A program made the position numbers and the translations under genes. The notes below the pieces were generated by a model. That model did no database searches and was not told the DNA's origin. It was given only the letters and a program-made list of their open reading frames with translations. Positions 3,901 to 52,579 of a stretch of 64,000 bases of DNA are shown one piece after another; the stretch's first letter is position 1, and the number at the start of each line of letters is the position of its first letter. Origin of the DNA: Candidatus Campbellbacteria bacterium (GTDB lineage Bacteria > Patescibacteriota > Minisyncoccia > Phycocordibacterales > UBA1006); the NCBI GenBank assembly GCA_002698305.1, contig NZWR01000003.1:10794-74793 (forward strand). The letters are read 5' to 3'.

Positions 3901-3949
3901 CTGCGAATACCGCAAAAGTTTTAAGTAGTTGTGTAAAAAAGTTTTTCAT
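920..3949 (-). CDS. giant cell-surface protein: signal peptide, five tandem Fn3-like repeats, acidic linkers, DUF11/CARDB-like domain, C-terminal TM anchor and Pro/Gln/Asn-rich cytoplasmic tail
   Basis: N-terminal signal MKNFFTQLLKTFAVFAVLFGTAAFADA. Repeats recur as ..D(E/Q)DSARLNG..(60-80 aa)..TYYYRAC. Poly-D linkers are present. TM segment ITFLGWLVIILGLFIIFLVARWLYL is followed by a low-complexity tail. Confidence 0.8.
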   Translation of the reverse strand: MKNFFTQLLKTFAVFAVLFGTAAFADAASFDPNPSPANIGITSIIESGAGQTCVDCGGQYTSVSLDIDQPGDVGYVTVFTDFMALRNSNEDVINARGIYFTEDDSDNDPSYTFTTKLNAQNANPITDSVTVNGLPGSYDIEFVDGEIQNEHGGTVQQGVTCPAAYDYNVNTNSNLFTSGGQYLGDLATLGGSWCAQGSIAVKYKITNTEVVIDPDPDPEVQTNGATNVDEDSARLNGEVIEGNNEQVWFALTTGTNPNCSSSSQRVDVSGSYDAGQNFSVTETGLQSETTYRYRACLNNGINGSVRTFTTDDDVVIVDPGDFIVRTDNPTNIDQDSARLNGTLIEGTAQSLFFVFGTSTSDANCNTGAPIFFTGGQAPFNAQYSFDNLRTGLASEQTYYYRACAQEMGFSGQIASGSLKSFETDDDGGNPDPSDDEPNAETLNEDDVDEDSAELNGRVDMNDFDNGIVFYVWGQDEDKVEDVEDENEFTDIEEDGQDLQAAIVESNFDGDDDFPYDVYGLDEDETYYYRICVEYDDNGETLECGNVEEFTTDDDDDGGNNNDDLEIETLLPRNVTQTTAEMCADLIEDGGDSVETYIEFRRSNGGSYTQTPSRDRREGQFCTRVTGLTPNTTYVYRGCAEDECGNTRTFRTQGSTIPTGQSPFILTDNPTNITTSSATLNGTYTANGGSGSCYFEYGRTSSLGSQTRAYSVTGVGSCTHSFTSLAAGQNYCIRAVINTQFGTDRGSTKCFTTNSGGVVISQPPIIIVDDDDDDIDLASLGLGLSLVRLEIDDNREVVTEGENVTYLIEWENISQIDLDDLDLKITIPSDMQVISSSRGRIDADRNVVLYTIDDLDAGENGEMTVSAVVVSGNVGDLFTAEAVMAYDNPINDAQENALDFDTDEYGVRIAGQTASVFGLANITFLGWLVIILGLFIIFLVARWLYLEREELRAQAYANNYNPYAAPGMPMQPGQPAAPAQPYAAPQNYGNSAPQNGGGNGNYYEPYRPNR

Positions 3950-21331: not shown

Positions 21332-23176
21332 TTAGTTTACAAACTGATTTGTGTCTTTGTTCTTTAGTTCCTCTTTTGCTTTTTTAATCGACAGAACTTG
21401 AGCAGGATCAGAGGTGATAATTTGGTCTTCGGTATATGAGGCGATAATTTTAATTGCAACATGTTTCAGTCCCGCAAAGAAGATTCCTTCTCCAACATTT
21501 GATTCAATTAATAAATACTTCTCTTCATCAGTAAGTCTGAAAATCTCCTGAAGGTTATCGATAGCACTTGGCGATTGTTTTAAGAGTAATTGCATCGATG
21601 AGTTGGTGATAATAGGAACACCGTAACGTGACTTGATAAAGTCACCGACGTCCTGAGTAATAGTTGCAAGCCCAAGGAAGTATTTACGTCCACGCTTAGC
21701 AATCATAAACAAGAATGATGCGGTATCATCTGATTTCATCATCCACCACGCCTCATCCACCACAAGGAGACGTTTCTTAATATCTTTACGGACAGCATTC
21801 CAAATAAACTGCGTGATGATATACATCGCTGCAGGCTTCAGCTCATCCTCCATATCTCGGATAGAGAATACAACAAGCTTTCTGTTAATATCCACGTTTG
21901 AAGGTTTGTTAATAAACCCAGACCAGGTTCCTCGCGTATATTTTGTTAGTCGTGTTAACAAAGATTCACTTCCTTCCATTGAAGAAAGCACCATTTCAAA
22001 GTCTGACATCAAGGGCGGCTCAATGTCTGAGTAATCGCTGTTAGGGGTGATATCTTTCAAGGCATAGGTTTCAGTAATAGCCCTATCAACCACTGAATCT
22101 TCTTCTGGTGTTAGACCTCCAAGCATGATCCTAAAGAGCCCTACGAGGTGAATAATATGGGTCCTAAGAACATCTGCTGGATCCTCGTCATCGAGCGGCT
22201 TTGGTACATCAAAAGGGTTGATGTGGTGCTCGGAAGAGAGGGAGATGTTAAAGTATCGTCCTCCTACGGCCTCGGCAAGGTATTCATATTCACGTTCAGG
22301 GTCAATAACGATAACTTCGGTATCAAACATCATTGTTCGCAGAATCTCAAGCTTTGTAGCATATGATTTTCCGGCTCCAGAAGTCGCAAAGATTACTGAG
22401 TTGTAGTTTGGTAGTGAATAGCGATCAAAAATAACGAGCCCTGAGTTGTGGCGGTTAATTCCGTACAAAATTCCTTTGTTGTCAGTGAGTTCTGATGAGA
22501 TAAAAGGGAAAAATGATGAAACGGGTCCGGTATTCAGTTTAGTGTGCACCTGTAACTGGTCGTTCCCAACAGGGGCAACTGACATAAACCCTTCAACTTG
22601 CTGGAAGAGTGCTGGTTTTAGATAGATAAGCTTTGATTCTAAGAGTGACCTAATTTCATTCTCAGTTTTAAAGAGCTCGTCTTCATCATCAGCATAAATA
22701 GTGATATAGAGACCAACAGAAAAGATTTTTTCCTGAGCTTGTTGCAGGGAGTCACGAAGTTGTTCAAGGTCACGATACGCAGTATCAAGGATTGGATCGC
22801 GAACGAGCCCTTTTGATTCTCGGGTGCTAATCTGTGACTGCACTTCGGCAACCTTTTTTTTGAATTGACTCAGAATTTTTTCAGTAGCAATAGGATGAAT
22901 ATGAATTCCAATATCAAAAACCTTATCAAGGTTAACGATTGGGGCGAGCCACCCGTCAGTAAGGTACCGAGGGTATGACATTACAAAAAAGGTTCGTGAT
23001 GTCTTGCCAGCGATACGGATAGATTTAGAGCTGACTTCAAGGGCTGCAGGAGCAAGAATATCTTGAAGCTGCAATTTCGCCGATTGATAAATTTCTCCTG
23101 GAAGCACAGGAACAGCAGTTGTTTTGATTTCTTCTTTTGGTTTAGAATTACCTAAAAGATCAGATAGTAGTGACAT
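21332..23176 (-). CDS. virB4: VirB4/TraC-type type IV secretion ATPase
   Basis: Walker A FATSGAGKSYATK, Walker B LLVVDEAWWMM, downstream GLATITQD. Start moved to ATG 23176 (MSLLSDLL), with TGGTATACT 6 nt upstream. Confidence 0.85.
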   Translation of the reverse strand: MSLLSDLLGNSKPKEEIKTTAVPVLPGEIYQSAKLQLQDILAPAALEVSSKSIRIAGKTSRTFFVMSYPRYLTDGWLAPIVNLDKVFDIGIHIHPIATEKILSQFKKKVAEVQSQISTRESKGLVRDPILDTAYRDLEQLRDSLQQAQEKIFSVGLYITIYADDEDELFKTENEIRSLLESKLIYLKPALFQQVEGFMSVAPVGNDQLQVHTKLNTGPVSSFFPFISSELTDNKGILYGINRHNSGLVIFDRYSLPNYNSVIFATSGAGKSYATKLEILRTMMFDTEVIVIDPEREYEYLAEAVGGRYFNISLSSEHHINPFDVPKPLDDEDPADVLRTHIIHLVGLFRIMLGGLTPEEDSVVDRAITETYALKDITPNSDYSDIEPPLMSDFEMVLSSMEGSESLLTRLTKYTRGTWSGFINKPSNVDINRKLVVFSIRDMEDELKPAAMYIITQFIWNAVRKDIKKRLLVVDEAWWMMKSDDTASFLFMIAKRGRKYFLGLATITQDVGDFIKSRYGVPIITNSSMQLLLKQSPSAIDNLQEIFRLTDEEKYLLIESNVGEGIFFAGLKHVAIKIIASYTEDQIITSDPAQVLSIKKAKEELKNKDTNQFVN

Positions 23177-23244
23177 GACACTAGTATACCAAGTACCTGC
23201 ATTAAAATAAAACACAAAATCAATGGTCTATAGTGTGGAATTAT

Positions 23245-23266
23245 AAAAAACACTCTAAAGAGTGTT
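23245..23266 (-). terminator. terminator after the 550-aa gene
   Basis: AACACTCT..AGAGTGTT hairpin followed by a T-run on the minus strand. Confidence 0.65.
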
Positions 23267-24919
23267 TTAAACGCTGCTTAGTCTAAGGCTCCAAAGATGT
23301 TCAGTTTCTTTGTCTAGGAAATAGAGGTAATCATCATCCTCATCGATCATAATTTTTTCAATATCTATTCCAGGCGCATAAACATCAGTGATATTGAATT
23401 CATATGTTTCTTCAAAGTTTGGAATACTTATTTTCCAAATACCATCGTTATAGAGTTCTTTTCCAAGATACCAGCTATCAGGATACTCCCCTTCAAAGGC
23501 AAGCGAATTTGGAACACCACAATAAACTTCATTACCGTCTTTAGACCATACGCATTTATCTGCAAAGGTTTGAAGTGTTAGTAGATGTTCGGTGTTATTG
23601 ATTCGATCTCGAATAAAGGTTTCGACCCCATCCCCTGTACTACGGCTTCCTATTGCATATTCTCCGCTTGGACTCACAAGCAGTGTTAACCCGACCGTTG
23701 CATCGGTCTTTTTAAAGTATCTTCCTGTGTCAGGTGTCAGCTCGTAACTATATCCTGAGGCTCCGTAACTTGGCTTGGTGACAAGTTCAATACTATTCTC
23801 ACTGGTGAATTGAGACAGCCATTCTGAGAATGGAGATTGAAAAATAATGGTTGGCTCGTCTGTTTCAAGATTGCGCAGTGTTCCTTGCGAACCATTTTCA
23901 TTTGATACCAAGTAAAACATTTGCTCTGGTAGATTTGGACTCATGCTGATGCTTGCAATATCCTGTGATAGGAATGAACCAGTCAAGGTATATTTTTCAT
24001 CAAGATTGTTATACACCTCAATAGCAGCTTGACGTTGCTGCTCGTCGCAGACCTCAAGCATTTGTTCTTTCGTTGCGTCGCCAATCTGCCCATCAATCTC
24101 TAGCTGATACAGTGATTGAAAGTTTTTAATAGCGGTACGTGTTTCTTCGGTAACCGCTGAGCCCTCATTTCCTGGTGAGTTGGTACCTTCTTGTGAGACA
24201 CGCGTTTGAGGTGATCGGTTCAGGAAGCTGTGAATACCAATAACATCAATATCATCTTCACCGTCTTCAAGAGCTCTAAATTCAAATGGGCATGGTTTAA
24301 TGTCTAGCTCAATAGGTCTGAGTTCTCCAAGATAGGTTTCTGCAGTATGGTCATCACTATTCCAGTACTGGAAGGCCGCATAGGTTCCTGTAGGGCTGAA
24401 ATAGACGTGTTCCGCGTTAGGTACATAGTTGTTAACCAATTTTGTTTCGGTCAGCTCAAAATCAGTTACTGCAGATTCATAGACCGTTCCATCTGAAATA
24501 GCGGTATAGCGAATATAATCATTCTCTACCGGAACTTTCTTTAGAACCTGAACACTTTCACCATCTTCGTCTATTTCAATATCAAGAATCTCTTGCTCCT
24601 CAACCTTGGTAAGTGGAACAAACCCTCCAGTTGGAAATGTAGAGACTTTTCGTAGGCGTGGGACGTTTTGATCCGGGTCAATACCGTCATCGATAATTTC
24701 ATCAGTCTCTATTGGCTCACCGTCATCACCAATAGTGAACTGACCTCCAGAGCTGCTTTGACCACTGTCAGATACTTCTCCAAACGGGAAGAGGTTTCGA
24801 GTATTCTGCCCAACATCATCTCTTCCTGAATCATCAAGAATGAAAAAATACCAAATTCCCCCAAGAACCAGAGCAAGAATTAGCAGCACAATAAAAATTT
24901 TTACTATTTTTTTGAGCAT
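23267..24919 (-). CDS. N-terminally anchored extracytoplasmic protein with a peptidoglycan-binding-like segment and probable beta-propeller region
   Basis: TM IVKIFIVLLILALVLGGIWYFFIL. TRTAIKNFQSLYQLEIDGQIGDATKEQML resembles the PG_binding_1 motif. The remainder is repetitive beta-rich (TolB-like impression). Confidence 0.6.
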   Translation of the reverse strand: MLKKIVKIFIVLLILALVLGGIWYFFILDDSGRDDVGQNTRNLFPFGEVSDSGQSSSGGQFTIGDDGEPIETDEIIDDGIDPDQNVPRLRKVSTFPTGGFVPLTKVEEQEILDIEIDEDGESVQVLKKVPVENDYIRYTAISDGTVYESAVTDFELTETKLVNNYVPNAEHVYFSPTGTYAAFQYWNSDDHTAETYLGELRPIELDIKPCPFEFRALEDGEDDIDVIGIHSFLNRSPQTRVSQEGTNSPGNEGSAVTEETRTAIKNFQSLYQLEIDGQIGDATKEQMLEVCDEQQRQAAIEVYNNLDEKYTLTGSFLSQDIASISMSPNLPEQMFYLVSNENGSQGTLRNLETDEPTIIFQSPFSEWLSQFTSENSIELVTKPSYGASGYSYELTPDTGRYFKKTDATVGLTLLVSPSGEYAIGSRSTGDGVETFIRDRINNTEHLLTLQTFADKCVWSKDGNEVYCGVPNSLAFEGEYPDSWYLGKELYNDGIWKISIPNFEETYEFNITDVYAPGIDIEKIMIDEDDDYLYFLDKETEHLWSLRLSSV

Positions 24920-24982
24920 AGTAGTACCTGTAGTATATCACGATGGAATTTTTGAGGAAAAAGAAAAACCGCATTCGCGATC

Positions 24983-27766
24983 TTATCTTCCTGTGGTTGA
25001 CCAATGCCAGTTTTCGATTGACCTTCCTCCTCTTTTAAGATTAAACAACCCATAGCTATTTGCGTTGTCTACCATCCAGTTGTAGCAATCACGTGTCCAC
25101 TCTTTTTTTGTTCCGTTTGTGTTTCCGTCGTGAACATTAATAGTTCCTGTTTGACCTCCTACTGTACAAGTAAAGTCTATTGCAAGTCCTGAGTTATGTT
25201 CTGATTTTCCAGGGGGGGCTGTTGGAATAGTACATGAGGATGATGGAGCATTATGTATGTCTGGACATCCATTTTTTATTCTAAGATATGCTTGTTGTTC
25301 CATTGTTCTAAAACCTCCACCTCCAAGGGATATTGAGTCGGTGGCTGCATTGGTAAGTAGATTTTGGTACTCCTCTGAAATACTTGAACACAGATATGTG
25401 CTTCCAACCTGCGTGATTCCCTGAGGGCATTTTGGGGTAGTGTATGAACCATCACCAAGATTGGGTGGATACGGCGGATACTGGGAATCATTAGCAATAA
25501 CTTCTTTAATCGCCGCTTCGTCTTCTTGATTAACTCTAACCTCTTCAATATTTGAGCCAAAATTCACTTGTAGAAGCTGTGGGTTAATCGTGTTTAGAAT
25601 GATATAGATGCTGAGGCCAAGGACTAATCCCATTAATGCTTGGGTGATGCGTGTTCGAGCATTACTTTTCCCAGTAAGGCTTTCCTCGGTCATGTACTGC
25701 ACTCCAGCAACGACAATCATAATGACTGACAATACCATCAAGAGACCAAGAGCTACTTGGAACAATGAGTTCACATAGTCTTCAAATTTGAAGGTGGTAA
25801 CATCTACCGCGACCCTTCGTGGATCGTTAGGGTCGGTAATATTACCAAGACCTGGAATAGGTGATAAGAATTCATAACAATTATCTTTGTACCCAGTTAA
25901 ATCCTCATTCGCACACGGTCCACTTGGTATAATACTCGAACCTGGGAAAACTGACTCAGGGAGGCCCGAGTTTGGATCAATTCCTGAGACTGACTCGATG
26001 GTCCAATTGGTACCACCACATAAACCTTCTGCACAATTTGCAAGTACTAACCCTCTCTCATGCGGCTCACCTGACCCTGTGTTGTTAATGGTATTAACAG
26101 TATCCCCAGCAACGTTTTCAATCTCAACACTAAAATTACAATCAGGATCATAATCAGTGTTGCAGTCATCATTGTGGGCCCTAAATGTCATTGTTAGTAG
26201 TTCACCATTTGGGGTTACTTCGAGTGTATCAGTGGTCTCTCCTCCAATATCAAAAGTTACGCCCCCGCTTGTGTTGTTGTCAGGAAATTCAATACTTATG
26301 GGGCTATTAACACAATTTGTTGTGTTCACCTTAAGAACGATAAGTGCATCATCAATTATTTCATTGTGTTGATTAAAGCTAATATCTGAACTTTCAAGAT
26401 TACAAACAGTGTTAGTACCATCTATACCTAAAATAATCTCTTCAAAATCCCAGTTATCTGAATCCCATCCCAGTAAGTTTCCTTCTCCGCAACTACCAGC
26501 ACAATTTGCAAGCCCAACTCCGCGCTCTGCCATAATCTCTTCAATATCTTCAATCATTTCAGCCCCCTGGTCAAAAATAAGGCTTGCTGATAGTTCAGGG
26601 TGCTCTCCCCACGTACTACTTGAATTAAATATTAATTCATCATTTGAGGCATCATAGATTTGAAAGTAATAAACACAATCCCATCCCCATTTCGTTGATC
26701 CCCCTTCACCATCTCTATTTTCCTCGTGACATTCAGCCTCATCTGATTCTACTTCAACAACAATCTGCCCACTATTTGTTGGTTTAATTAGTGGTGGCAT
26801 CTCTTCAATCCTTACAAAGCGAGGAGTAAGATTTTCAAGTCCTGCTGCTTTTATTACGACTCCGTCATTACAACCAGATACACTGATTTCGATATCTGTA
26901 TTTGAATCTACAACATTGCCTAGTGTGTTAATAGTATCTATGGATAAGCTGTTTACAGAACACCCTTCAATCACAGTATTATCTGGTACCTGACTTGTTG
27001 TAAAAGAAACAATTTCTCCTCGAACCTCTGTTCCTCCACCAAGGCTTTTTGCACAGGCTTGATAAAAGTAGTTTGTACTTGGTAACAAGTCTTCTATATT
27101 AGAATTCCTAAAAGAATCTGGATAGTGCTGCTCGTTTCGGTCGTATACACATTCACCCGCAACATTATTTCCATTTTGGTTGGTATTAATGATATATCCA
27201 GATTCACGAATATACGGAGTCACTATTTTTCTCCTCAATGTTGCGGATTGATAGGTAATGTTATTTTGCTGAACAGCAAGCGTCTCTACTTCGATATTTT
27301 CAAGTTGCTGTGTTGTAGGCATGGCAAAAGAAACAATCTCTCCATCTACATTAATTCCAGAATCCAATATCCCACAGGCTTTATAGTAATAGGTCGTTCC
27401 TGGTTGCAATCCAGTAAATTGCTTTTTAAAAGGAGAAGTCTGTCCATGCATAATATATCCTCCATATGCACCAGTACCTGGAATTAACCAAGAACTTTGG
27501 TTGGTGATAATACCACAGCTACTTAGTTCGACATTAGATTGATTTGTACCAACAGCAAAACCAATTTGCTTCATTTTTGAGTTATATTTTTGCTCTAGCG
27601 TTCCTTGGTCAAGGATAAGGTACCCTGATACCTCAACGCTTGTTTGAGAAAGAAACTCGGCTGGGAGAGTTTGAATATCATACTCAAGGTTAACGTTCCC
27701 TCCTTGGGCTTGTGATACTAGAAATCCAGCAAAAAATAAAAGAAAAGTGAAGAAAATTTTTTTCAT
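24983..27766 (-). CDS. composite T4SS-locus protein: secreted Fn3-like/Cys-rich ectodomain + VirB2/TrbC-like two-TM hairpin + C-terminal M15 (VanY-type) peptidoglycan peptidase
   Basis: Signal MKKIFFTFLLFFAGFLVSQAQG. Repeats end in TTYYYKACG / TNYFYQACA. TM pair ALGLLMVLSVIMIVVAGVQYM and ALMGLVLGLSIYIILNTINP. C-terminus has GGGGFRTMEQQ...PGKSEHNSGLAIDF...ENWHW, the M15 His/Asp zinc-site pattern. Confidence 0.75.
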   Translation of the reverse strand: MKKIFFTFLLFFAGFLVSQAQGGNVNLEYDIQTLPAEFLSQTSVEVSGYLILDQGTLEQKYNSKMKQIGFAVGTNQSNVELSSCGIITNQSSWLIPGTGAYGGYIMHGQTSPFKKQFTGLQPGTTYYYKACGILDSGINVDGEIVSFAMPTTQQLENIEVETLAVQQNNITYQSATLRRKIVTPYIRESGYIINTNQNGNNVAGECVYDRNEQHYPDSFRNSNIEDLLPSTNYFYQACAKSLGGGTEVRGEIVSFTTSQVPDNTVIEGCSVNSLSIDTINTLGNVVDSNTDIEISVSGCNDGVVIKAAGLENLTPRFVRIEEMPPLIKPTNSGQIVVEVESDEAECHEENRDGEGGSTKWGWDCVYYFQIYDASNDELIFNSSSTWGEHPELSASLIFDQGAEMIEDIEEIMAERGVGLANCAGSCGEGNLLGWDSDNWDFEEIILGIDGTNTVCNLESSDISFNQHNEIIDDALIVLKVNTTNCVNSPISIEFPDNNTSGGVTFDIGGETTDTLEVTPNGELLTMTFRAHNDDCNTDYDPDCNFSVEIENVAGDTVNTINNTGSGEPHERGLVLANCAEGLCGGTNWTIESVSGIDPNSGLPESVFPGSSIIPSGPCANEDLTGYKDNCYEFLSPIPGLGNITDPNDPRRVAVDVTTFKFEDYVNSLFQVALGLLMVLSVIMIVVAGVQYMTEESLTGKSNARTRITQALMGLVLGLSIYIILNTINPQLLQVNFGSNIEEVRVNQEDEAAIKEVIANDSQYPPYPPNLGDGSYTTPKCPQGITQVGSTYLCSSISEEYQNLLTNAATDSISLGGGGFRTMEQQAYLRIKNGCPDIHNAPSSSCTIPTAPPGKSEHNSGLAIDFTCTVGGQTGTINVHDGNTNGTKKEWTRDCYNWMVDNANSYGLFNLKRGGRSIENWHWSTTGR

Positions 27767-27814
27767 GTTCTGATTATACTATCCTCGCGCTGTTTTGCTA
27801 AGTAAAAACCTTGG

Positions 27815-28834
27815 TTAGGAACCAAGGTTAATATTAAGCGTTGCTCTCCCGACTCCTTTTTGGAGAATTTTTTTAATACCTTCTACAGCTGTTTCTATTT
27901 GCAGGGAGCCAGATTCTCCATTGGTGGTAAGGAAAATTTGATTTTGTTTGGCAAAGTCTTGAGGGGCTTGGTCGCGTCCGTTTACATTCCATCTAACAAA
28001 TACATCAGTAAAATTTCGAGCTGTCGTTGAGAAATATACAGGGTGAAAGGCTAATCTGATGGTGTCTTTAAGAAGATTAGGGAAATTACGCAGCGATTTT
28101 TGAGTCAAGAGCCGTCCGTCAGTGTTCATCTCATAAAAAAGAATTTCCGGGTCGATTGCGGCTGTATCAATATTAATAACATTTTCAGCAAAGGAATTCT
28201 CGCGTCGGTCGTTAGAAGTTACACTAATACGTTCATTGGTAATAATCGGGTCTGCTGTAAATTCAAATGATTGGCGTCCAAACCCCGAAGACCGAACCTG
28301 GCGGTCATAATTTCGGTCCCAATAGTAAATAAGGTTTGGGGCATCGTTTGGTTCAATGAGGAGTGTTTCAGGGATTCCTGTTACGCGGATTTCAGACTGG
28401 CGAATAGGCAATGCTTTTCCTTTATAAAAAGGTGGGGTATAGCTATCAACCGTCTCCCACAACAAATCAATGTTTGATGGAGCAAAACCCAGTTCTTTAC
28501 GTAAAGAACGTCCCTGGTAATCAACGACAATAGTGATGTTGGTCGGTTCACCCGTGTTTCCGTTGGTAAAGCTGTAGTCACGTTCACCAAATCCAGAGAG
28601 GACACGCTGGCCATTTTTAAACCAAGAAATAAATTCATTATTAAGATTAAAACTGTAACTCGTCACCCGAAGATCAACCTGTTCGTTGGGTCCTGGAATT
28701 TCAGGTTTGATATCGACAGAAATATCATCAGCGCTATACAAATCAAATTGCTGAGCTCCCGTATGTTCAGCAAAGGTAAAAAAACAGGCACTGAACAAGA
28801 ACGCAAATATAAAAATGTGAGAAAGCTGTTTCAC
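27815..28834 (-). CDS. secreted hypothetical protein of the T4SS-like locus
   Basis: GTG start. Signal MKQLSHIFIFAFLFSACFFTFA. TATACT lies 6 nt upstream of the start. Confidence 0.6.
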   Translation of the reverse strand: MKQLSHIFIFAFLFSACFFTFAEHTGAQQFDLYSADDISVDIKPEIPGPNEQVDLRVTSYSFNLNNEFISWFKNGQRVLSGFGERDYSFTNGNTGEPTNITIVVDYQGRSLRKELGFAPSNIDLLWETVDSYTPPFYKGKALPIRQSEIRVTGIPETLLIEPNDAPNLIYYWDRNYDRQVRSSGFGRQSFEFTADPIITNERISVTSNDRRENSFAENVINIDTAAIDPEILFYEMNTDGRLLTQKSLRNFPNLLKDTIRLAFHPVYFSTTARNFTDVFVRWNVNGRDQAPQDFAKQNQIFLTTNGESGSLQIETAVEGIKKILQKGVGRATLNINLGS

Positions 28835-28890
28835 GTCATCAGTATACTATTTTTTCTGATTGTTTATAAGCCATATAAAAAGAACAGCTG

Positions 28891-29550
28891 CTACTGTCCT
28901 AGTTGTGGAATATTTCGGTGACTCTCTCCTGGGTTGAACATGTTATAGAACACCTCAATAGCTTGTTCAGTGTTTAATTGTTCTGATCGCACCCCAAAAC
29001 GAGAAAGCCCTCCTTTTACAATAGCAACACGCTGTTCAAGCTGGCTTCGTTGCTCTTCAAATTTCGCAGATTCTTCTTGGAAATTCTTCTTTTTACTACC
29101 CAAGAATAACTGTTGGAAAATATTTTGATCTGGAGCTTTGCTAAAGGCACTTCCAGTATATGGAACAACAACGTAGAATTTCTTAGACATTACATTGACT
29201 GAGTCGTTAAACCATTTAATGAATTCAATGTACTCACGCGTTTGAAGACGAAGCAATTCTTCTTCCTGCTGTTCAATCCGCCTTTCAAGAGTAAGAAGAT
29301 AGGGCTTGATATCATAACGTCGTGATTGCACAGCAATTTCAACTGGGAATTCAATAGAGTTTAAAAAGCCTTGGAACTGCATAATAACCGCCTGCTGCTC
29401 GTCAGGTGATTTTAACGCAATATTAATTGCTGAAGCTAGAAGAATAGCTCGCAAGCTCCCGTCTTCAAGAACGACAATACCATCCCGAATTTCTTTTACT
29501 GGAATAAAATCTTGCGTTCGTGATCCCGAATATTTTTTAGTCTCCGCCAT
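28891..29550 (-). CDS. cytoplasmic hypothetical protein of the T4SS-like locus
   Basis: 219 aa, no TM. DFIPVKEIRDGIVVLEDGSLRAILLASAINIALKSPDEQQAVI resembles N-terminal regions of Gram-positive conjugation ATPase-associated proteins. Weak, by eye. Confidence 0.55.
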   Translation of the reverse strand: MAETKKYSGSRTQDFIPVKEIRDGIVVLEDGSLRAILLASAINIALKSPDEQQAVIMQFQGFLNSIEFPVEIAVQSRRYDIKPYLLTLERRIEQQEEELLRLQTREYIEFIKWFNDSVNVMSKKFYVVVPYTGSAFSKAPDQNIFQQLFLGSKKKNFQEESAKFEEQRSQLEQRVAIVKGGLSRFGVRSEQLNTEQAIEVFYNMFNPGESHRNIPQLGQ

Positions 29551-29990
29551 AAGTATCCCTAGTATACCTTATTTTCAATAAGGTATACTAGGGATACTTC
29601 CCTGAACTTGTTTCAGGGTCCCCCATCATGAAAAAGTATTTTGTCTATATTCTTACTAATAAAAATCACACTGTTTTATATATTGGTATGACGGGTAATT
29701 TAAGGGAAAGAATTCTTAAACACAGAGTTGGAAACGCTGCTCCATTTATGACACAATATAATTACAAAAAACTAGTTTACTTTTGTAGGTGTTTAGACAA
29801 AGTAGAAGCACTGAAAAAAGAAAAACAAATAAAAAACTGGAGACGTGAATGGAAAATTACGCTTATAGAAAAACAAAATCCTCTGTGGGAGGATTTTTTT
29901 GATTACCTTGTTTAAGTTGTGGGTTCAGGCCCTGAAACAAGTTCAGGGCTTGGACTTTGACGAGTAACTAGTTACTCGTCAAAGTCCAAG
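29551..29990. mobile_element. GIY-YIG mini-cassette bracketed by perfect palindromes and inverted 19-nt hairpins
   Basis: Left: a 23-bp perfect inverted repeat, 29551-29573 with 29577-29599. Hairpin CCCTGAACTTGTTTCAGGG at 29600-29618 has its exact reverse complement at 29930-29948. Right: a 42-bp perfect palindrome at 29949-29990. Confidence 0.5.
29628..29915 (+). CDS. GIY-YIG nuclease family protein (YhbQ/UPF0213-like, 95 aa)
   Basis: KYFVYILTNKNHTVLYIGMTGNLRERILKHR...KEKQIKNWRREWK carries the GIY..YIG, Arg and Glu motifs. It is the only plus-strand gene inside the minus-strand T4SS-like block between 21.3 and 34 kb. Confidence 0.85.
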   Translation: MKKYFVYILTNKNHTVLYIGMTGNLRERILKHRVGNAAPFMTQYNYKKLVYFCRCLDKVEALKKEKQIKNWRREWKITLIEKQNPLWEDFFDYLV

Positions 29991-30391
29991 ATATCGAGGC
30001 TCCACGCAAGATCTGAAATTTTTTGATCGTTAGTTTCTTCAGGTAAATCGCCTTCTTTTGGAAAAGGTTTGTGGATTTGCTGTACATTTCGAGCCCCAGG
30101 TTCCGGATCTTTTTGTCGCCACAGATAGAATTTATTTGAAAAGCTGTATAGGATAAATGACTCTACCATTTCAATAAAAGGACGTCCATTTGGTTTGTAA
30201 AAAACCAAGGCAAGCGCAAAGCCCCCAATAGGTGCCCCAAGCAAGATGGCTGCAAATGTCGGCAGTGATTTGTAGAGAATAAAAATAATTCCTGCCCCAC
30301 CGACAAGGTATAAAGTTTCTCTAAACGTAAATGGACCAAATAGTTTGTCGGGTACATTGATAAATTGTGGCACTTCAAACCTCATTAACAT
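29972..30391 (-). CDS. PrgI/TcpE-type (VirB3-like) small membrane protein
   Basis: FEVPQFINVPDKLFGPFTFRETLYLVGGAGIIFILY followed by a second TM PIGGFALALVFY. This pattern is typical of the VirB3 analogues of Gram-positive T4SS. Confidence 0.65.
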   Translation of the reverse strand: MLMRFEVPQFINVPDKLFGPFTFRETLYLVGGAGIIFILYKSLPTFAAILLGAPIGGFALALVFYKPNGRPFIEMVESFILYSFSNKFYLWRQKDPEPGARNVQQIHKPFPKEGDLPEETNDQKISDLAWSLDILDFDE

Positions 30392-30438
30392 AAGTATAGC
30401 AAGTGCAAACTAAAAAGAAACATCGATGCTGATGTTTC

Positions 30439-31281
30439 TTAGTCTTTACTAATATCTTGCAAGCTTGGCTCAGATGATTGCTCTTTTTGGTATATGTGAG
30501 ATTCAACAGCTGGGGCAAACCCTTGTAGATGAATTTTTTTATCATGAGAATGATCAGGGGTATAGTTGCCTTGCCCAAAATCACGCCCTGTCGCTGCGCG
30601 AGTTTCTTCAGGAACAAACGCTGACAATGGATCGCCTTGTTTTAATATTTTCGTATCAGTTCGGTGCCCGCTAATTCCCTCAAGGTCTTTGTGAGTAATT
30701 TCTTCATTATAGCTGGTGGTGCTTTTCTCTAGCGTTGTTTGCGGTTCTTCGATGGTTTCATTATTTGCGACTTCTTTGTGTTCGGTAGCTCCTCCTAGAA
30801 TTGCAGCGACTTCTTTGTGAAGATGCGTATCAACAGAATCACGGGATTCATCTTCATCAACAAGGTGTACGCCAGAACCAGAAAGGTCACCTCGGAAATC
30901 ATCATGATCAATTGGTTCAAGGTATGGGTCAAATTGGACCGTTGTATCTTTTTGTGTGAGATGAGGCTGAACGTTTGTAGAAGTAAAGGATGCTTTTTGT
31001 ATGGGGGAGAGCACAGTGCTGTTAATATCGTTCACCAATGATTTAACTTTTTCTGGAAGGACACCTAAATGTTTCTGAATATGATTTGAGAGTTCATCTG
31101 GCTTACTCATTCCCACAATGACAAGCATAATTTCTCGATAGAGCTCGTCCTCTTGGTCAATACTGAGTTTGTGTGCGCGAGCAATCTCAGTAAGTTTTTT
31201 TGGCCATGGAAAATTTTTGACAGCTGATTTAATATTATCTGGAAGTTCTTCGATTTTCCGTTGAATAATGTCGTGTATCAT
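30439..31281 (-). CDS. hypothetical protein of the T4SS-like locus
   Basis: Start moved to ATG 31281 (MIHDIIQRK), with GGTATACT 6 nt upstream. No recognisable domain. Confidence 0.55.
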   Translation of the reverse strand: MIHDIIQRKIEELPDNIKSAVKNFPWPKKLTEIARAHKLSIDQEDELYREIMLVIVGMSKPDELSNHIQKHLGVLPEKVKSLVNDINSTVLSPIQKASFTSTNVQPHLTQKDTTVQFDPYLEPIDHDDFRGDLSGSGVHLVDEDESRDSVDTHLHKEVAAILGGATEHKEVANNETIEEPQTTLEKSTTSYNEEITHKDLEGISGHRTDTKILKQGDPLSAFVPEETRAATGRDFGQGNYTPDHSHDKKIHLQGFAPAVESHIYQKEQSSEPSLQDISKD

Positions 31282-31315
31282 GACCATAGTATACCTTAGT
31301 ACCTCCAAGGGATAA

Positions 31316-31340
31316 AATAAAAACACCATTAATGGTGTTT
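31316..31340 (-). terminator. hairpin terminator after the 104-aa gene
   Basis: Perfect palindrome AAACACCATTAATGGTGTTT with flanking A/T runs. Confidence 0.7.
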
Positions 31341-31655
31341 TTATTTGTGTTTATATATTTCTGTGTGAATCAGTTTTAGGATTTTTTGTATATCTTCAGT
31401 TTCTCGAGCTCGCAGAGCAATACTTATATTGTCATCGGCAGATTTTAAAGAAATCATATCAAGTAGGTAGCCAATAGCATTTTCTTGCACCTCTCGTGAT
31501 TCATCATTTCCTAGTGCAAATGATGTTTCAATTTTTTGTATATCTTTCGCCATATCTCCTGATTCTAGATATTCCTGAGTTTGGGTTGAACTATTAACAA
31601 AATACTCTGCTAGAAGCTCTGCCTGTTTAGACGTGTTGTTTGGTTCTGTTGTCAT
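31341..31655 (-). CDS. small acidic hypothetical protein of the T4SS-like locus
   Basis: 104-aa ORF 8 nt downstream of the VirB6-like gene, same strand. Confidence 0.5.
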   Translation of the reverse strand: MTTEPNNTSKQAELLAEYFVNSSTQTQEYLESGDMAKDIQKIETSFALGNDESREVQENAIGYLLDMISLKSADDNISIALRARETEDIQKILKLIHTEIYKHK

Positions 31656-31663
31656 AATAATTG

Positions 31664-33973
31664 TTAGTTACCTTTTTTCTCGTTTTTATATCGGGCCTTG
31701 CTGAGATCTCTGTCAAAATCCTTGCCATCGTTGGCAAACATTCCTCCTACTTTAGTTTTACGTTCTTTTCTTAATTCTTGAATACGAGGATTTTTCCCAA
31801 TCCAGCTGGCGAGATATCCAGCAGCAGCTCCACCTAAGGCTGCTCCAACATATGCACCTGCCCCAGGAAGAACGATTGATGTAATTGTTCCTCCTAATAC
31901 TGCACCAACGGTAGAAGCTTTTTTGGTATCACCATATCCACCTTGTTGTTCTCGCGCGTCTAGATACTGTTCTGTTCTTCTTCGACCATCCTGTGCAAAT
32001 GGAGTATTTGTATCCAAGATCTTTTGATCCTTGTCAGTTAGGTCATCTTTCCTGCCTTTAATTTCAACCTTCAGTTGGCCAATTTCAGCCTTGAGGCCAT
32101 CAGCTTTTCCAATCTTCTCATTGTCAATTGGCCTCCCAGCATCTTTATCATCTTGTATAAGTCTTCGTACATCCTTGAGGTCTTCTTGTTTTTTAGTAAC
32201 ATCCTCCTCTTTTTTTAGAATTTCATTTTCAATCTCTTTAACTCGTTTAACCTCAAAGCTAGGTTTTCCATTCTCATCAAGAAGAATATCCCCTGCCTTA
32301 GCTTCGTCATAGTTTCCTGGGCCAGCAAGCATTTCTCTTGTAGCATTTTCACTCTGAGCTTGAGCTTCGGTCATTCGCGTGTATGAACGAACCCCGTATG
32401 CACCATCTCGGTAGTTGTCTTCTTTGGTCGACATCCAGTCATTGAATTTAGTTGCTTTCTCTTCTTTTTCTTTTGCAATTCTTTCTTGTCGCGGCTTGAA
32501 TCCTTCTTTAACATTTAAGGCGTTCGTAGCTGTAATACCTGTTTGTTTTCCTAGGTATTGTGCTGCTTTTGTTTGCCTAAAATCAAAGGTTGATGATTGG
32601 GCGCGATCAGCAAGGTTGTATGCTGAACGACCAAGGCTTCCGCTTTTTGCAGCCAGGTTTTTAAATCGTTCTGATTTCATCGCCCGGCCTGCTACTGCCC
32701 CAACTGTTCCTCGTGCTGCTAATGCCGCTCCTCCAGTTGCAACACCAAGCCCAACAGCAGCTGCACCTCCAACGGCCTTGTTTACGACATGGCTGATAGT
32801 TCCGGCGATTTCTCCTGACATTTTTTGCGCCACTCTTTTTGAAAGCATGATAATGGCAACAATTCCAAGCATCGGAATAATGACGTAGAATATTTGTTTA
32901 ATAAAATCATTCGTTGCTCCTGATTCAGAAACAATATTGATATTCATGAATTTAATAGCAAGGAAGAGGAAAAAGAGAAAGGCTGCCGGCATAAAGGCCA
33001 TCTTAATAAGATCGTTCAGCCATTTTTTAAATCCTACATAAGGCAAGCTCTCCATTCCGGGGACCGTAATAGAGGCGAAAGCAAGGGGGGCAAGCACCAC
33101 GGTGATATATAAACCAATAGTTCTCCCAAGCATGAGTAAGGCTACCGACATAAAGGTGAAAATTATAACAGCGTTTATAATTCCGATAATAAAGACGAGC
33201 ACGAGCCTCACTCCTGTACTTGCATTACTTCCTCCTTCAGCACCAACTTCGTTGAGGATTTTTTGCGGATTGAATTTTGCTGCAATCGCCAATGAGACGG
33301 ACTCTTCTCCAGACAAATCATTAACCAAATCCCCATCATTGATGGCCTGCCCTTCTCCGTCAATAATTGTGGTGTTTTGAGCAGTACCACCAATATTGTT
33401 ATAGAACACAAACCCTAATACATTACCAAGATCAACCAAAAGAAATGAGAAAAATAAACTAAAGTTAATAGTTAGAGCCACCAGTATTGTTTTAACGAGT
33501 CGCTGCTTATCATCTCGTCCCGCCATACCGAGCACCATTTTGAACGCCATTACAAGTAGTGCAAATATAAACAATACATTCGTAAGATCACGTAATATTT
33601 CCCATCCTTCTACAATAAAACCAGCATCACGATAGGAGGAGCTTTGCAGGGTAAATTCCATGAAAAAGTCCAGCACCATTCCTGCAACCAAAACCAAGAA
33701 ACCTCCAACCGTAATAAGAAGCATTTGGAAAAAGTTTACAATTCCACACCCAAAGTCGTACCATGTACAGTCAAGATATCCGACATCCTGCGATCCAGCG
33801 GGTGTTGGTGGGTTGTTCGCGTCAAAACCGCCTCCTTCTACACCGCCGTCACCAGCACTGCCTTGTGCGTACACAACCGCGGGACTTATCCCTGACTCGT
33901 TCTGCGTAACAGGCGGAGTAACAATAGCAGTAAAAAAGACAAAAACTAGTAAAATCTTAATAAAGGTTTTCAT
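31664..33973 (-). CDS. polytopic VirB6/TrbL-like membrane protein with long Lys/Glu-rich coiled-coil region and C-terminal Gly-zipper TM
   Basis: Signal/TM at the N-terminus, at least 6 hydrophobic helices between residues ~70 and 420, then KEEDVTKKQEDLKDVRRLIQDDKD..., then GAVLGGTITSIVLPGAGAYVGAALGGAAAGYL. Confidence 0.6.
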   Translation of the reverse strand: MKTFIKILLVFVFFTAIVTPPVTQNESGISPAVVYAQGSAGDGGVEGGGFDANNPPTPAGSQDVGYLDCTWYDFGCGIVNFFQMLLITVGGFLVLVAGMVLDFFMEFTLQSSSYRDAGFIVEGWEILRDLTNVLFIFALLVMAFKMVLGMAGRDDKQRLVKTILVALTINFSLFFSFLLVDLGNVLGFVFYNNIGGTAQNTTIIDGEGQAINDGDLVNDLSGEESVSLAIAAKFNPQKILNEVGAEGGSNASTGVRLVLVFIIGIINAVIIFTFMSVALLMLGRTIGLYITVVLAPLAFASITVPGMESLPYVGFKKWLNDLIKMAFMPAAFLFFLFLAIKFMNINIVSESGATNDFIKQIFYVIIPMLGIVAIIMLSKRVAQKMSGEIAGTISHVVNKAVGGAAAVGLGVATGGAALAARGTVGAVAGRAMKSERFKNLAAKSGSLGRSAYNLADRAQSSTFDFRQTKAAQYLGKQTGITATNALNVKEGFKPRQERIAKEKEEKATKFNDWMSTKEDNYRDGAYGVRSYTRMTEAQAQSENATREMLAGPGNYDEAKAGDILLDENGKPSFEVKRVKEIENEILKKEEDVTKKQEDLKDVRRLIQDDKDAGRPIDNEKIGKADGLKAEIGQLKVEIKGRKDDLTDKDQKILDTNTPFAQDGRRRTEQYLDAREQQGGYGDTKKASTVGAVLGGTITSIVLPGAGAYVGAALGGAAAGYLASWIGKNPRIQELRKERKTKVGGMFANDGKDFDRDLSKARYKNEKKGN

Positions 33974-34112
33974 AAATATCTTTATTATATGTTATATGTG
34001 CTGGTTAGCATACTCTTTGTTTTCCTTTATTTATCCACAGTTGATAGCAAAAGCATTTACAGAGGTTGAAATTATATGTCATAATAAAGAAAATAATAAA
34101 AATCCATATACT

Positions 34113-51965: not shown

Positions 51966-52004
51966 TACGTTTCACAGTTTCATGAATATATGCTTAACAG
52001 GCGA

Positions 52005-52579
52005 TGTTTCATATGAAACATCATTTACTGGTTGCATGAATTAAAAAAACAACATTCTTTATCTAGGTTTAGAAATTAGGTAATATTCTCTATTCTTCTG
52101 ATTCTATGTTTTTTGTTTTGCCTGTCGATATATACAACATAAAGATCAATTTGTGTTTCATATGAAACTCCATGCTTTTTGATATAAGCTAGCATAGTTT
52201 TTTTGAATTTCTGGATTTTCTTTGCATTAAAGTTTTCTGCTGGGTTATACAATGTTTCATATGAAACATTCGCATTGGTGCACTGGATGCTTTTAACTTC
52301 TATAAAATGTATACGATCATCTTTTTGAGCAACGATATCGATTTCACCTATTGGAATGGTAAAGTTTCTCTCTATAAGGTAAAATCCTGATTTAGAGAGG
52401 TATTCACAGCAAATTTCCTCACCTTTTTCTCCTATTTTTTGAGTGCGCGACGTGAAAACCTTCATAGTAGTAGTATAACAGAGTATGAGCAGTTTTTAGT
52501 TATATATGTTTCATATGAAACATATATAATTTTATAATAGTGTTTCATAAGTTTTGGTATGTGTATTTCACGTGAAACC
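52005..52579. repeat. cluster of five parS-like 16-bp palindromes
   Basis: TGTTTCATATGAAACA at 52005-52020, 52253-52268 and 52507-52522. TGTTTCATATGAAACT at 52154-52169. TATTTCACGTGAAACC at 52564-52579. Canonical parS is TGTTNCACGTGAAACA. Confidence 0.55.
52076..52465 (-). CDS. yraN: YraN-family (UPF0102) endonuclease-like protein
   Basis: GEKGEEICCEYLSKSGFYLIERNFTIPIGEIDIVAQKDDRIHFIEVKS. TATACT lies 6 nt upstream of the ATG. Confidence 0.8.
   Translation of the reverse strand: MKVFTSRTQKIGEKGEEICCEYLSKSGFYLIERNFTIPIGEIDIVAQKDDRIHFIEVKSIQCTNANVSYETLYNPAENFNAKKIQKFKKTMLAYIKKHGVSYETQIDLYVVYIDRQNKKHRIRRIENIT

Follow-up and report, generated by a model that had tools for sequence, protein, structure and literature searches.

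Introduction

SsnA of Neisseria is a 94-amino-acid, single-domain GIY-YIG nuclease whose catalytic residues are Y6, Y17 and E64 (Chenal et al. 2025, Nat Commun, PMC11893778). It binds an oriented hairpin repeat, the NTS/SRM (CGTC-stem-GMAV-stem-C), only as single-stranded DNA (ssDNA), and cuts a few nucleotides (nt) 5' of the hairpin, in the variable flank, with no action on double-stranded DNA (dsDNA) or RNA (PMC11893778). Cleavage depends most on the three nt 5' of the stem, and binding most on the C just 3' of it (PMC11893778). SRMs lie near 71% of the homologues and on both sides of 42% of them; the authors likened the NTS-ssnA-NTS arrangement to insertion sequences (IS) and to repetitive extragenic palindromes (REP) with their associated tyrosine transposases (RAYT), and in N. 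meningitidis the enzyme reduces transformation by NTS-bearing DNA (PMC11893778). Patescibacteria go unmentioned in that paper (PMC11893778). Here I describe an ssn-like gene and its flanks in a 64-kb stretch of a Candidatus Campbellbacteria genome, a patescibacterium (64,000 nt of contig NZWR01000003.1, hereafter the window), in which the gene and its two hairpins are enclosed by long palindromes that match the ends of the neighbouring host genes.

Ssn nucleases were described only in 2025, and their IS-like layout has been compared with mobile elements without evidence on the junctions. The present locus and its relatives comprise empty, occupied, re-occupied and palindrome-only alleles of one site, and they combine recognition hairpins lacking the part needed for cleavage with host-derived palindromes that stay perfect while their sequence drifts. 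The explanation that I favour, tentatively but as a quite possible one, is that an SRM-ssn-SRM unit entered the site and that the palindromes are secondary, being inverted copies of the host ends made by fold-back repair after the nuclease's own cutting.

Results

An Ssn-type gene between hairpins and palindromes

The central gene (29628–29915, plus strand) encodes a single-domain GIY-YIG nuclease of 95 amino acids (Pfam GIY-YIG, E 2.5e-13). The domain covers residues 3–76 and is the only one present, with no extra DNA-binding domain. Aligned pairwise with the 94-amino-acid SsnA orthologue of N. gonorrhoeae, the protein is 39% identical (E 1e-20), and a tblastn search of the N. gonorrhoeae chromosome gives E 1e-11; the published criterion for a homologue is a tblastn E below 1e-10 to Neisseria SsnA (PMC11893778). 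Residues Y7, Y18 and E65 align with Y6, Y17 and E64 of SsnA and are invariant in the alignment of homologues (A1). The AlphaFold2 model is one compact GIY-YIG domain (predicted local distance difference test score 89) whose fold matches are, best first, UPF0213, Slx1 and UvrC-N. The only sequence match in the PDB is the UPF0213 protein BH0048 (1ZG2); it is weak (E 0.002, 29% identity) and is also the best fold match (E 1.7e-4). A search of the phage collection gave no match. A preliminary description of this locus had called the gene a YhbQ-type GIY-YIG gene; the domain assignment stands, and by the similarities above the gene is of the Ssn type rather than a generic YhbQ.

On either side of the gene lies a hairpin that is read inward. 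The left, SRM-like hairpin (29600–29620, plus strand) has a stem of 7 base pairs (bp; 29600–29606 with 29612–29618) and the loop CTTGT, that is CCCTGAA cttgt TTCAGGG, 19 nt; a T follows the stem and then C29620, the equivalent of the C that the family carries just 3' of the stem. This sequence, CCCTGAACTTGTTTCAGGG at 29600–29618, has its exact reverse complement at 29930–29948, a match obtained in 0 of 100 shuffles. The inverted 19-nt pair with 7-bp stems thus agrees with the preliminary description, except that the right hairpin (minus strand, core 29930–29948) extends to 29929–29949 if it is read with an 8-bp stem, GCCCTGAA/TTCAGGGC.

Each hairpin adjoins a palindrome. The proximal arm of the left one (29551–29573, minus strand) is the native, near-leaderless promoter of a TraC-like gene of 219 amino acids; it includes the -10 box TATACT of that gene (29561–29566, minus strand) and stops one base before its ATG. 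After a centre of 3 nt (29574–29576, without strand) the distal arm (29577–29599, plus strand) is a perfect inverted copy of the host promoter, with the inverted -10 box (29584–29589) facing the nuclease gene; the two arms of 23 nt are 100% complementary. The right palindrome has arms of 21 nt and no loop. Its distal arm (29949–29969, without strand) adjoins the hairpin and is a perfect inverted copy of the 3' end of a PrgI-family gene, while the proximal arm (29970–29990, minus strand) is native and holds the last five PrgI codons plus 1 nt (LDFDE), the stop codon (29972–29974) and 2 nt.

No other perfect palindrome of the window is as long as either of these. Palindromes with arms of at least 12 nt number 15 in the window, against at most one in 20 Markov shuffles; the other long perfect ones are A-tract/T-tract terminators. 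Folded as a single strand, the sequence gives z = -11.3, its three helices being contiguous. All the repeats that the preliminary description had listed were found at their positions, identical in 13 contigs. The whole region 29501–30020 is identical in these 13 contigs (NCBI, ENA, JGI and Logan assemblies), and since they were independently assembled the locus is not an assembly artefact. An Rfam scan of 29300–30200 at a permissive threshold returned only chance matches to microRNA hairpins, so no known RNA family accounts for the structures.

Empty and occupied orthologous sites

Species-representative genomes were scanned with the TraC-like protein, which gave 15 orthologous loci (numbered with an L below). 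Six of them (L015, L016, L018, L020, L021 and L022) have an empty PrgI-TraC spacer, with no nuclease gene and no long palindrome: PrgI is followed within about 65 nt by an intrinsic terminator, the -10 box TATACT and the ATG. The spacer is also empty in more distant relatives (L027). Because the orthologous sites are empty, the cassette is an insertion. The proposal in the preliminary description that a discrete, hairpin-bounded cassette had been inserted here is thereby borne out, and the comparison with orthologous loci that it called for defines the empty site as PrgI, terminator, promoter and TraC within about 65 nt.

The empty sites also tell the two arms of each palindrome apart. The PrgI C-terminus LDILDFD(E/N) and the promoter beside the ATG are kept in the empty-site orthologues, with an identical -10 box equally far from the ATG, and no equivalent of a distal arm is present. 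Conservation of the proximal arms in empty sites identifies them as native host sequence and the distal arms as added copies, in line with the earlier proposal that the outer arms are inverted copies of host ends. In the window, the inverted arm takes the place of the native -35 element, which in L016 and L020 is ATGACA with a spacer of 18 nt.

Three or four species have the cassette in this spacer with unchanged orientation, their nuclease proteins being 47–65% identical, and its insertion is old. Signs of recent mobility are lacking: the cassette has kept its place, and the 64 kb contain no other copy of the hairpin. The two closest nuclease homologues (65% and 63% identity) belong to L029 and L031, which share the junction, orientation and order of parts with the window in different sequences. 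L029 has a palindrome with 22-nt arms adjoining the ATG, the hairpin CCTCCAA ctcga TTGGAGG, the gene, the hairpin CCTCCAG tcaag CTGGAGG and a palindrome with 28-nt arms; an independent assembly, L030, is identical to it over 540 nt. In L031, whose layout is the same, the arms measure 31 nt (2 mismatches) and 29 nt. In both loci the right palindrome is centred on the native A-tract/T-tract terminator of PrgI, and the distal arm copies the terminator stem too. Their right palindrome reaches into the last PrgI codons and starts at the same codon position as that of the window; the window's version resembles theirs after loss of the terminator core.

Two further loci carry parts of this arrangement. 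L024 shares the left junction, namely the ATG, a palindrome with 21-nt arms and a relic hairpin with an insert of 20 nt in its loop; the insert is itself hairpin-forming. Nested beside the relic of this older hairpin is a second, different ssn cassette (L024:3440-3951, 47% identity) with complete GTC-ATCCTCGC...GCGGGGAT-C hairpins and no adjoining palindrome, which suggests replacement or re-invasion at an existing site. The second cassette also contains four direct repeats of TTGTCATCCTC (half-sites). In L017 the left palindrome is present and the nuclease gene absent; the palindrome is one compensated pair away from that of L029, with a flanking gene just 73% identical, and a search of L017 for relics of the cassette found none apart from the palindrome. 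In each of the five loci the left arm stops exactly at the ATG, and palindrome and hairpin join with zero spacer in 7 of 7 junctions.

Other changes have affected the same spacer. In a distant orthologous locus (L028:3579-3953, CAZHDO010000002.1) it holds a gene for a 23S rRNA intervening-sequence (IVS) protein (PF05635, E 5e-38), flanked by AGTAT-rich direct repeats; the PrgI/TraC spacer seems to attract insertions of small genes, as a hotspot would. In L019, L023 and L025 PrgI is inverted relative to the TraC-like gene to give a divergent pair, and the L019 spacer contains a palindrome with 9-nt arms and two facing TATAAT boxes (3922–3943).

A co-conversion gradient in the flanks, sought as a sign of homing, was not found: flank identity among occupied loci is not above that with empty loci, save for a marginal difference in the last 60 nt of PrgI (0.79 versus 0.75). 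In the gene trees, which are star-like, occupied loci are interspersed with empty ones.

Concerted evolution of the arms

The eight palindromes of this set comprise 197 arm positions, among which there are 2 mismatches and no G-T pair. Between species, proximal arms differ at 4–10 of 21 positions, nearly every difference is mirrored in the distal arm, and the flanking genes have about 72–78% nucleotide identity for all pairs. Had the arms drifted independently, tens of mismatches would be expected (P < 1e-4 even at 5% divergence per arm). Near-perfect, mirrored arms in the face of this drift indicate either that DNA-level templating keeps the arms complementary or that they are repeatedly regenerated, and the pattern would not be expected from selection on RNA folding or on promoter function. 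Template switching that creates or perfects short inverted copies is an established mutational mechanism (PMC7202029, PMC6357072, PMC9435742). Direct hairpin formation by transesterification, of the P-nucleotide type, was considered as a general origin and rejected, since 7 of the 8 palindromes have an asymmetric centre of 1–7 nt; such a centre fits fold-back priming.

The hairpins lack the 5' side of the recognition motif

In the six hairpins of the window, L029 and L031 the 3' C is retained and the 5' GTC is missing; each time the host-derived arm begins exactly at the stem. At the left junction of the cassette, the distal arm stands where family members have the GTC and the flank that is cut. 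Neither the window nor L029 nor L031 contains a match to the published degenerate SRM pattern (HGTCWY 5' of the stem, C 3'); as implemented, the pattern also misses most family hairpins, with an upstream match in 6 of 65 loci and a downstream match in 7 of 65. Besides the flanking two, no copy of the hairpin and no SRM-like hairpin was found in the 64-kb window. One imperfect copy, with 3 mismatches (22731–22749), lies inside the TraG-like coding sequence (CDS) and does not fold, and was taken as chance.

At the level of sequence, the comparisons show that each distal arm is a host end copied in inverted form, that the right palindrome is seeded on the native terminator, and that the hairpins are truncated on the side that directs cleavage.

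Survey of the Ssn family

A metagenome scan with the alignment of homologues gave 80 further loci in unrelated contexts. Within 130 nt of the gene, the density of perfect hairpins (stem of at least 7 bp) is 11 times that found beyond 400 nt, and in 30 of 70 metagenomic loci they flank the gene on both sides. Read inward, their stems have the consensus AT[CTG]C[CT]G[GA]N and their loops are CTTGT, CTTGA or GAAA. In this direction, family hairpins have GTC at -3 to -1 in 69 of 127 cases and C at +1 in 82 of 127; read outward, GTC occurs in 17. This orientation of GTC and C means that both sites face inward, with the cut sites just outside the cassette on each strand. G-T wobble pairs were tried as a means of separating RNA-level from DNA-level function, and imperfect stems turned out to be nearly absent: 63 stems have 8 of 8 Watson-Crick pairs against 10 with 7 of 8, and none of the 10 has a G-T pair. 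Stems are thus perfect or absent, and the near-absence of imperfect ones favours a structure that acts as DNA.

The hairpin-gene-hairpin layout is also found in cultured bacteria and in L029, L031 and L032. The preliminary description did not know the nested arrangement from classical IS elements and suggested searching for GIY-YIG genes with the same flanks; the hairpin-nuclease-hairpin part of that arrangement is the published NTS-ssnA-NTS architecture (PMC11893778). The search itself recovered the layout in about 80 unrelated loci, with the both-sided fraction given above. What does not generalise is the nesting, which had been put forward as an insertion signature: long perfect host-end palindromes next to the cassette were seen in 0 of the 80 other family loci. 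Nested host-end palindromes are, across the loci compared, specific to this lineage.

Copy number and context vary within the family. The single homologue in N. gonorrhoeae (L130, NZ_CP119140.1, 1880787–1884056) lies within an array of 17 ATTCCC-N8-GGGAAT hairpins, the dRS3 repeat, and the hairpin of Aeromonas has at least 40 matches in N. gonorrhoeae chromosomes. Multicopy hairpins occupy at least 40 places in the N. gonorrhoeae and Photobacterium records and 29 in Shinella. The identical homologue P0024 has one context in 23 contigs, and not the varied contexts that would be a sign of mobility. P0100, a 95-amino-acid homologue found identical in L118–L127, has constant downstream genes (of 93 and 78 amino acids, sometimes with a helix-turn-helix gene) and variable upstream ones (RuvX/DUF1292 or TrkA); its probable place is at the margin of a larger mobile element.

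The survey also gave some observations on gene ends and records. Inside the CDS, the codons of the conserved C-terminal motif NPxW(x)D(L/F) make up a palindrome that resembles a terminator and has A- and T-runs, as at 29875–29897 in the window and at L032:1925-1959, the same NPxWxD codons being palindromic in the homologue L032/L034. Some homologue open reading frames (ORFs) read through the downstream hairpin, which gives them tails such as DAE(T/S)SSA. Several records in the plasmid collection are mislabelled, being whole chromosomes (2.2–4.9 Mb, non-mobilizable, nearly unannotated) entered as plasmids: NZ_CP119140.1, NZ_AP026896.1, CP090106.1 and NZ_CP069303.1.

Promoters and genomic setting

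A sigma-70 promoter scan of the locus found nothing. Canonical -35 elements are missing from promoters here, and the position of the -10 box relative to the start codon was used instead. Among 54 genes of the window, 17 have a -10-like hexamer (TATACT/TATAAT) that ends 6–10 nt before the start codon, at exactly 6 nt in 11 genes and at 7–10 nt in the remaining 6; by implication, mRNAs that are leaderless or nearly so would be common in this genome. Upstream of ssn nothing but the inverted promoter copy resembles a promoter, and just 9 nt separate the left hairpin from the ssn ATG. Since -10 boxes 6–10 nt before an ATG are common, the inverted copy should start the ssn transcript 3–4 nt before the hairpin. 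The 3' end of the nuclease CDS itself contains a terminator-like hairpin (29875–29897, without strand), which has an A-run as well as a T-run and could stop transcription from either direction.

The host genes on the two sides are the TraC-like/VirB4 N-terminal-like gene (28891–29550, minus strand, 219 amino acids; Pfam PF26593 TraC-like, NCBIfam VirB4-type and TrsD matches), with orthologues in 11 related genomes at 74–86% identity, and a gene for a PrgI-family (VirB3-like) membrane protein (29972–30391, minus strand, 139 amino acids; Pfam PF12666, E 5e-8). The ssn unit thus lies inside a block resembling a type IV secretion system (T4SS; 21332–34000) that comprises a TraG-like ATPase, a giant protein with VanY and pilin domains, the VirB4-N-like protein and PrgI; the 769-amino-acid product of 31664–33973 in the same block has no family match. 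By analogy with the modulation of ssDNA uptake by Ssn in Neisseria, this position may be more than coincidence.

Elsewhere in the window, 31315–31346 was examined as another gene-end palindrome and found to be an ordinary AAAAACACC/GGTGTTTTT terminator, of a type present three times in the window; the ORF start near it is probably over-extended. An 18-nt palindrome, ATGTTTCATATGAAACAT, has three identical copies (52004–52021, 52252–52269 and 52506–52523) spaced by about 250 nt around the gene at 52076–52465, and these look like operator sites.

Discussion

A proposed origin by fold-back repair after self-cleavage

The core, 29600–29949, is an SRM-ssn-SRM unit, with the nuclease gene between its two inward-facing recognition hairpins, that entered the PrgI-TraC spacer of one clade of Paceibacteria-like Patescibacteria long ago. 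The later sequence of events that I tentatively favour would run as follows. The nuclease would have cut exposed single strands just 5' of each hairpin, in the flanking host DNA. The host 3' ends would have folded back, on the terminator hairpin at the PrgI side and on a 3–7-nt turn at the promoter side, been extended by about 20 nt on themselves and been rejoined to the hairpin stems. As a result the 5' GTC would be lost and the former cut-site flank locked in a duplex stacked on the hairpin, so that the sites could still be bound and would no longer be cut. Mismatches arising later in the arms would be erased by intrastrand template switching (quasipalindrome correction). Several side effects would follow: the inverted promoter copy would start the ssn transcript 3–4 nt before the hairpin, the right palindrome would lengthen or replace the PrgI terminator, and the hairpin at 29875–29897 together with the right palindrome would separate convergent transcripts. 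If this account is true, it shows how a genome copes with a nuclease that has target sites on both sides of its own gene, and it offers a natural case, in very small genomes, of long inverted duplications made and homogenised at the DNA level.

Several points weigh against this account. I infer the fold-back origin from the anatomy of the locus only, with no intermediate seen. The count of 0 in 80 other loci with host-end palindromes means that the process is rare or that it was a single historical event. The cutting rules come from Neisseria and Wolbachia enzymes, to the first of which the present protein is 39% identical, so loss of the GTC may not abolish cleavage here. A left arm that ends at the ATG in five loci fits shared ancestry or promoter selection better than a random stop of repair synthesis. 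L017, with a palindrome and no cassette, needs an extra loss event. Selection rather than templated correction may keep the arms perfect, and the star-like trees are compatible with a single ancestral insertion followed by losses and with spread by recombination alike.

A stronger form of the same account gives the palindromes a function. The host-end palindromes would be scars of self-cleavage that double as self-immunity, perfect duplexes having replaced the GTC and buried the cut-site flank in a way that stops further cutting. I regard this extension as doubtful. Were it true, the locus would provide the first evidence of Ssn action on chromosomal ssDNA in vivo and reveal a route of fold-back repair and palindrome homogenisation in Patescibacteria, and the T4SS-like location would link the unit to the control of incoming or outgoing ssDNA, as in Neisseria transformation.

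Alternative explanations

An unlikely alternative, though the one that survives best, is that the palindromes are purely regulatory and maintained by selection on expression, the left one being a bidirectional promoter for the divergent TraC-like and nuclease genes and the right one a shared terminator or RNA-stabilising hairpin for the convergent transcripts of PrgI and the nuclease, with an incidental link to the biochemistry of the nuclease. This would be ordinary promoter and terminator capture by an inserted gene, and much of the anatomy agrees with it. The inverted -10 box faces a nuclease gene that has no other promoter-like sequence, in a genome where leaderless-type promoters are common; the right palindrome of L029 and L031 is built round a native terminator, and the other long perfect palindromes of the window are A-tract/T-tract terminators. 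Two facing TATAAT boxes occur in a 9-nt palindrome of the divergent PrgI/TraC pair of L019. Palindromes without the GIY-YIG gene in relatives would, according to the preliminary description, make them regulatory, and L017 goes part of the way by keeping the left palindrome alone. Expression, however, has no need of 21–29 positions that are all Watson-Crick paired, and selection for it does not account for the lack of a single G-T pair in 197 arm positions or for differences between species that are nearly all mirrored. The left arm replaces the native -35 region of the empty sites, the window's right palindrome has no T-tract and stands next to a nuclease CDS that already has a terminator-like hairpin, and arms that start exactly at the stems in place of the GTC are left unexplained. 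Promoter and terminator functions, which the preliminary description had kept as its alternative, are thus plausible as a consequence of the palindromes and give no account of perfect, co-varying arms of 21–29 nt.

It is quite improbable that the palindromes are older than the cassette and served as its target, the unit inserting beside DNA that forms hairpins or cruciforms as some ISs do at REPs and terminators. In its favour, L017 has the left palindrome without the cassette, one compensated pair from the L029 palindrome next to a flanking gene of 73% identity; a second, different ssn cassette lies beside the relic hairpin of L024, and the unrelated IVS protein gene in the same spacer of L028 points to an insertion hotspot. 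The six empty sites, however, have no such palindromes, and zero spacer on both sides would require two palindromes back to back before the insertion. The distal arms, moreover, sit where the native terminator-promoter spacer was, and the 80 other family loci show no association with long palindromes.

The chances are slimmer still for an active single-strand transposon of the REP/RAYT or IS200/IS605 kind, of which the nested arrangement would be the regular insertion product; the preliminary description leaned chiefly this way. The layout is IS-like, some genomes have many copies of the hairpins, contig ends often fall at these genes and the same analogy is made in the published discussion. 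Against it, none of the 80 other loci has host-end palindromes; the 64-kb window has only two hairpins, site and orientation are constant in four species at 47–65% protein identity, and the identical homologue P0024 keeps a single context in 23 contigs. Ssn is, besides, known for cleavage only, with no known strand-transfer activity. The preliminary description had held that a gene conserved at this position, with no further hairpins anywhere, would speak against such an insertion; the gene is indeed conserved, and the hairpin count covers 64 kb. Finally, palindromic chimeras made by an assembler or by amplification can practically be dismissed: several contigs do end inside or beside the palindromes, but 29501–30020 is identical in 13 contigs of differing samples, assemblers and sources, and the same architecture recurs in other sequence in L029/L030, L031, L024 and L017 from unrelated studies.

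Comparison with known systems

For the fold-back account the nearest precedents are P nucleotides, snap-back insertions and quasipalindrome switching, which leave short inverted copies beside a break or hairpin, as the distal arms are (PMC7202029, PMC9435742). The arms described here differ in being 21–29 nt long, in standing on both sides of an inserted gene and in persisting across species, and the asymmetric centre of most of the palindromes sets them apart from products of direct transesterification.

REP/REPIN sequences and their RAYTs resemble the locus in having a single-copy gene for a hairpin-recognising single-strand nuclease between inverted cognate hairpins, in hairpins that are able to multiply in the genome and in mostly vertical inheritance (PMC3116915, PMC3337134). 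The comparison, already drawn in the preliminary description, is apt, the same analogy being in print for this family of enzymes that bind hairpins in ssDNA (PMC11893778). The chemistry is different: GIY-YIG enzymes act by hydrolysis, RAYTs through the covalent tyrosine intermediate of HUH enzymes, and the folds are unrelated. No HUH/Y1 tyrosine transposase domain was found in the 95-amino-acid protein, whose only domain is GIY-YIG. Strand transfer is not a known activity of Ssn, and RAYT insertions are without flanking inverted host copies (PMC3116915, PMC3337134).

The free-standing GIY-YIG homing endonuclease genes of phages, of the Seg and MobE type, encode dsDNA cutters with separate DNA-binding domains. 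They share with the present locus a small nuclease gene in the spacer between conserved genes, present or absent among relatives at the same site. The differences are the single 95-amino-acid domain found here and the lack of a co-conversion gradient in the flanks. Characterised members of the Ssn family do not cut dsDNA (PMC11893778). Among minimal GIY-YIG domains, UPF0213, YhbQ and prokaryotic Slx1-like proteins (PMC1564403) are similar in architecture, but the similarity of the present protein to SsnA is far stronger than that to 1ZG2, and the flanking hairpins are a hallmark of Ssn.

It is the widely distributed Ssn family itself (cd10448) that the locus resembles most, in its single GIY-YIG domain of about 94 amino acids with the same catalytic residues, its inward-facing inverted hairpins, the C 3' of the stem and the perfection of the stems, as for a structure acting at the DNA level. 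It differs from the family in hairpins that are without the conserved 5' GTC and present in only two copies in 64 kb, in a patescibacterial host, and in the host-end palindromes that adjoin the hairpins, a feature not described in PMC11893778.

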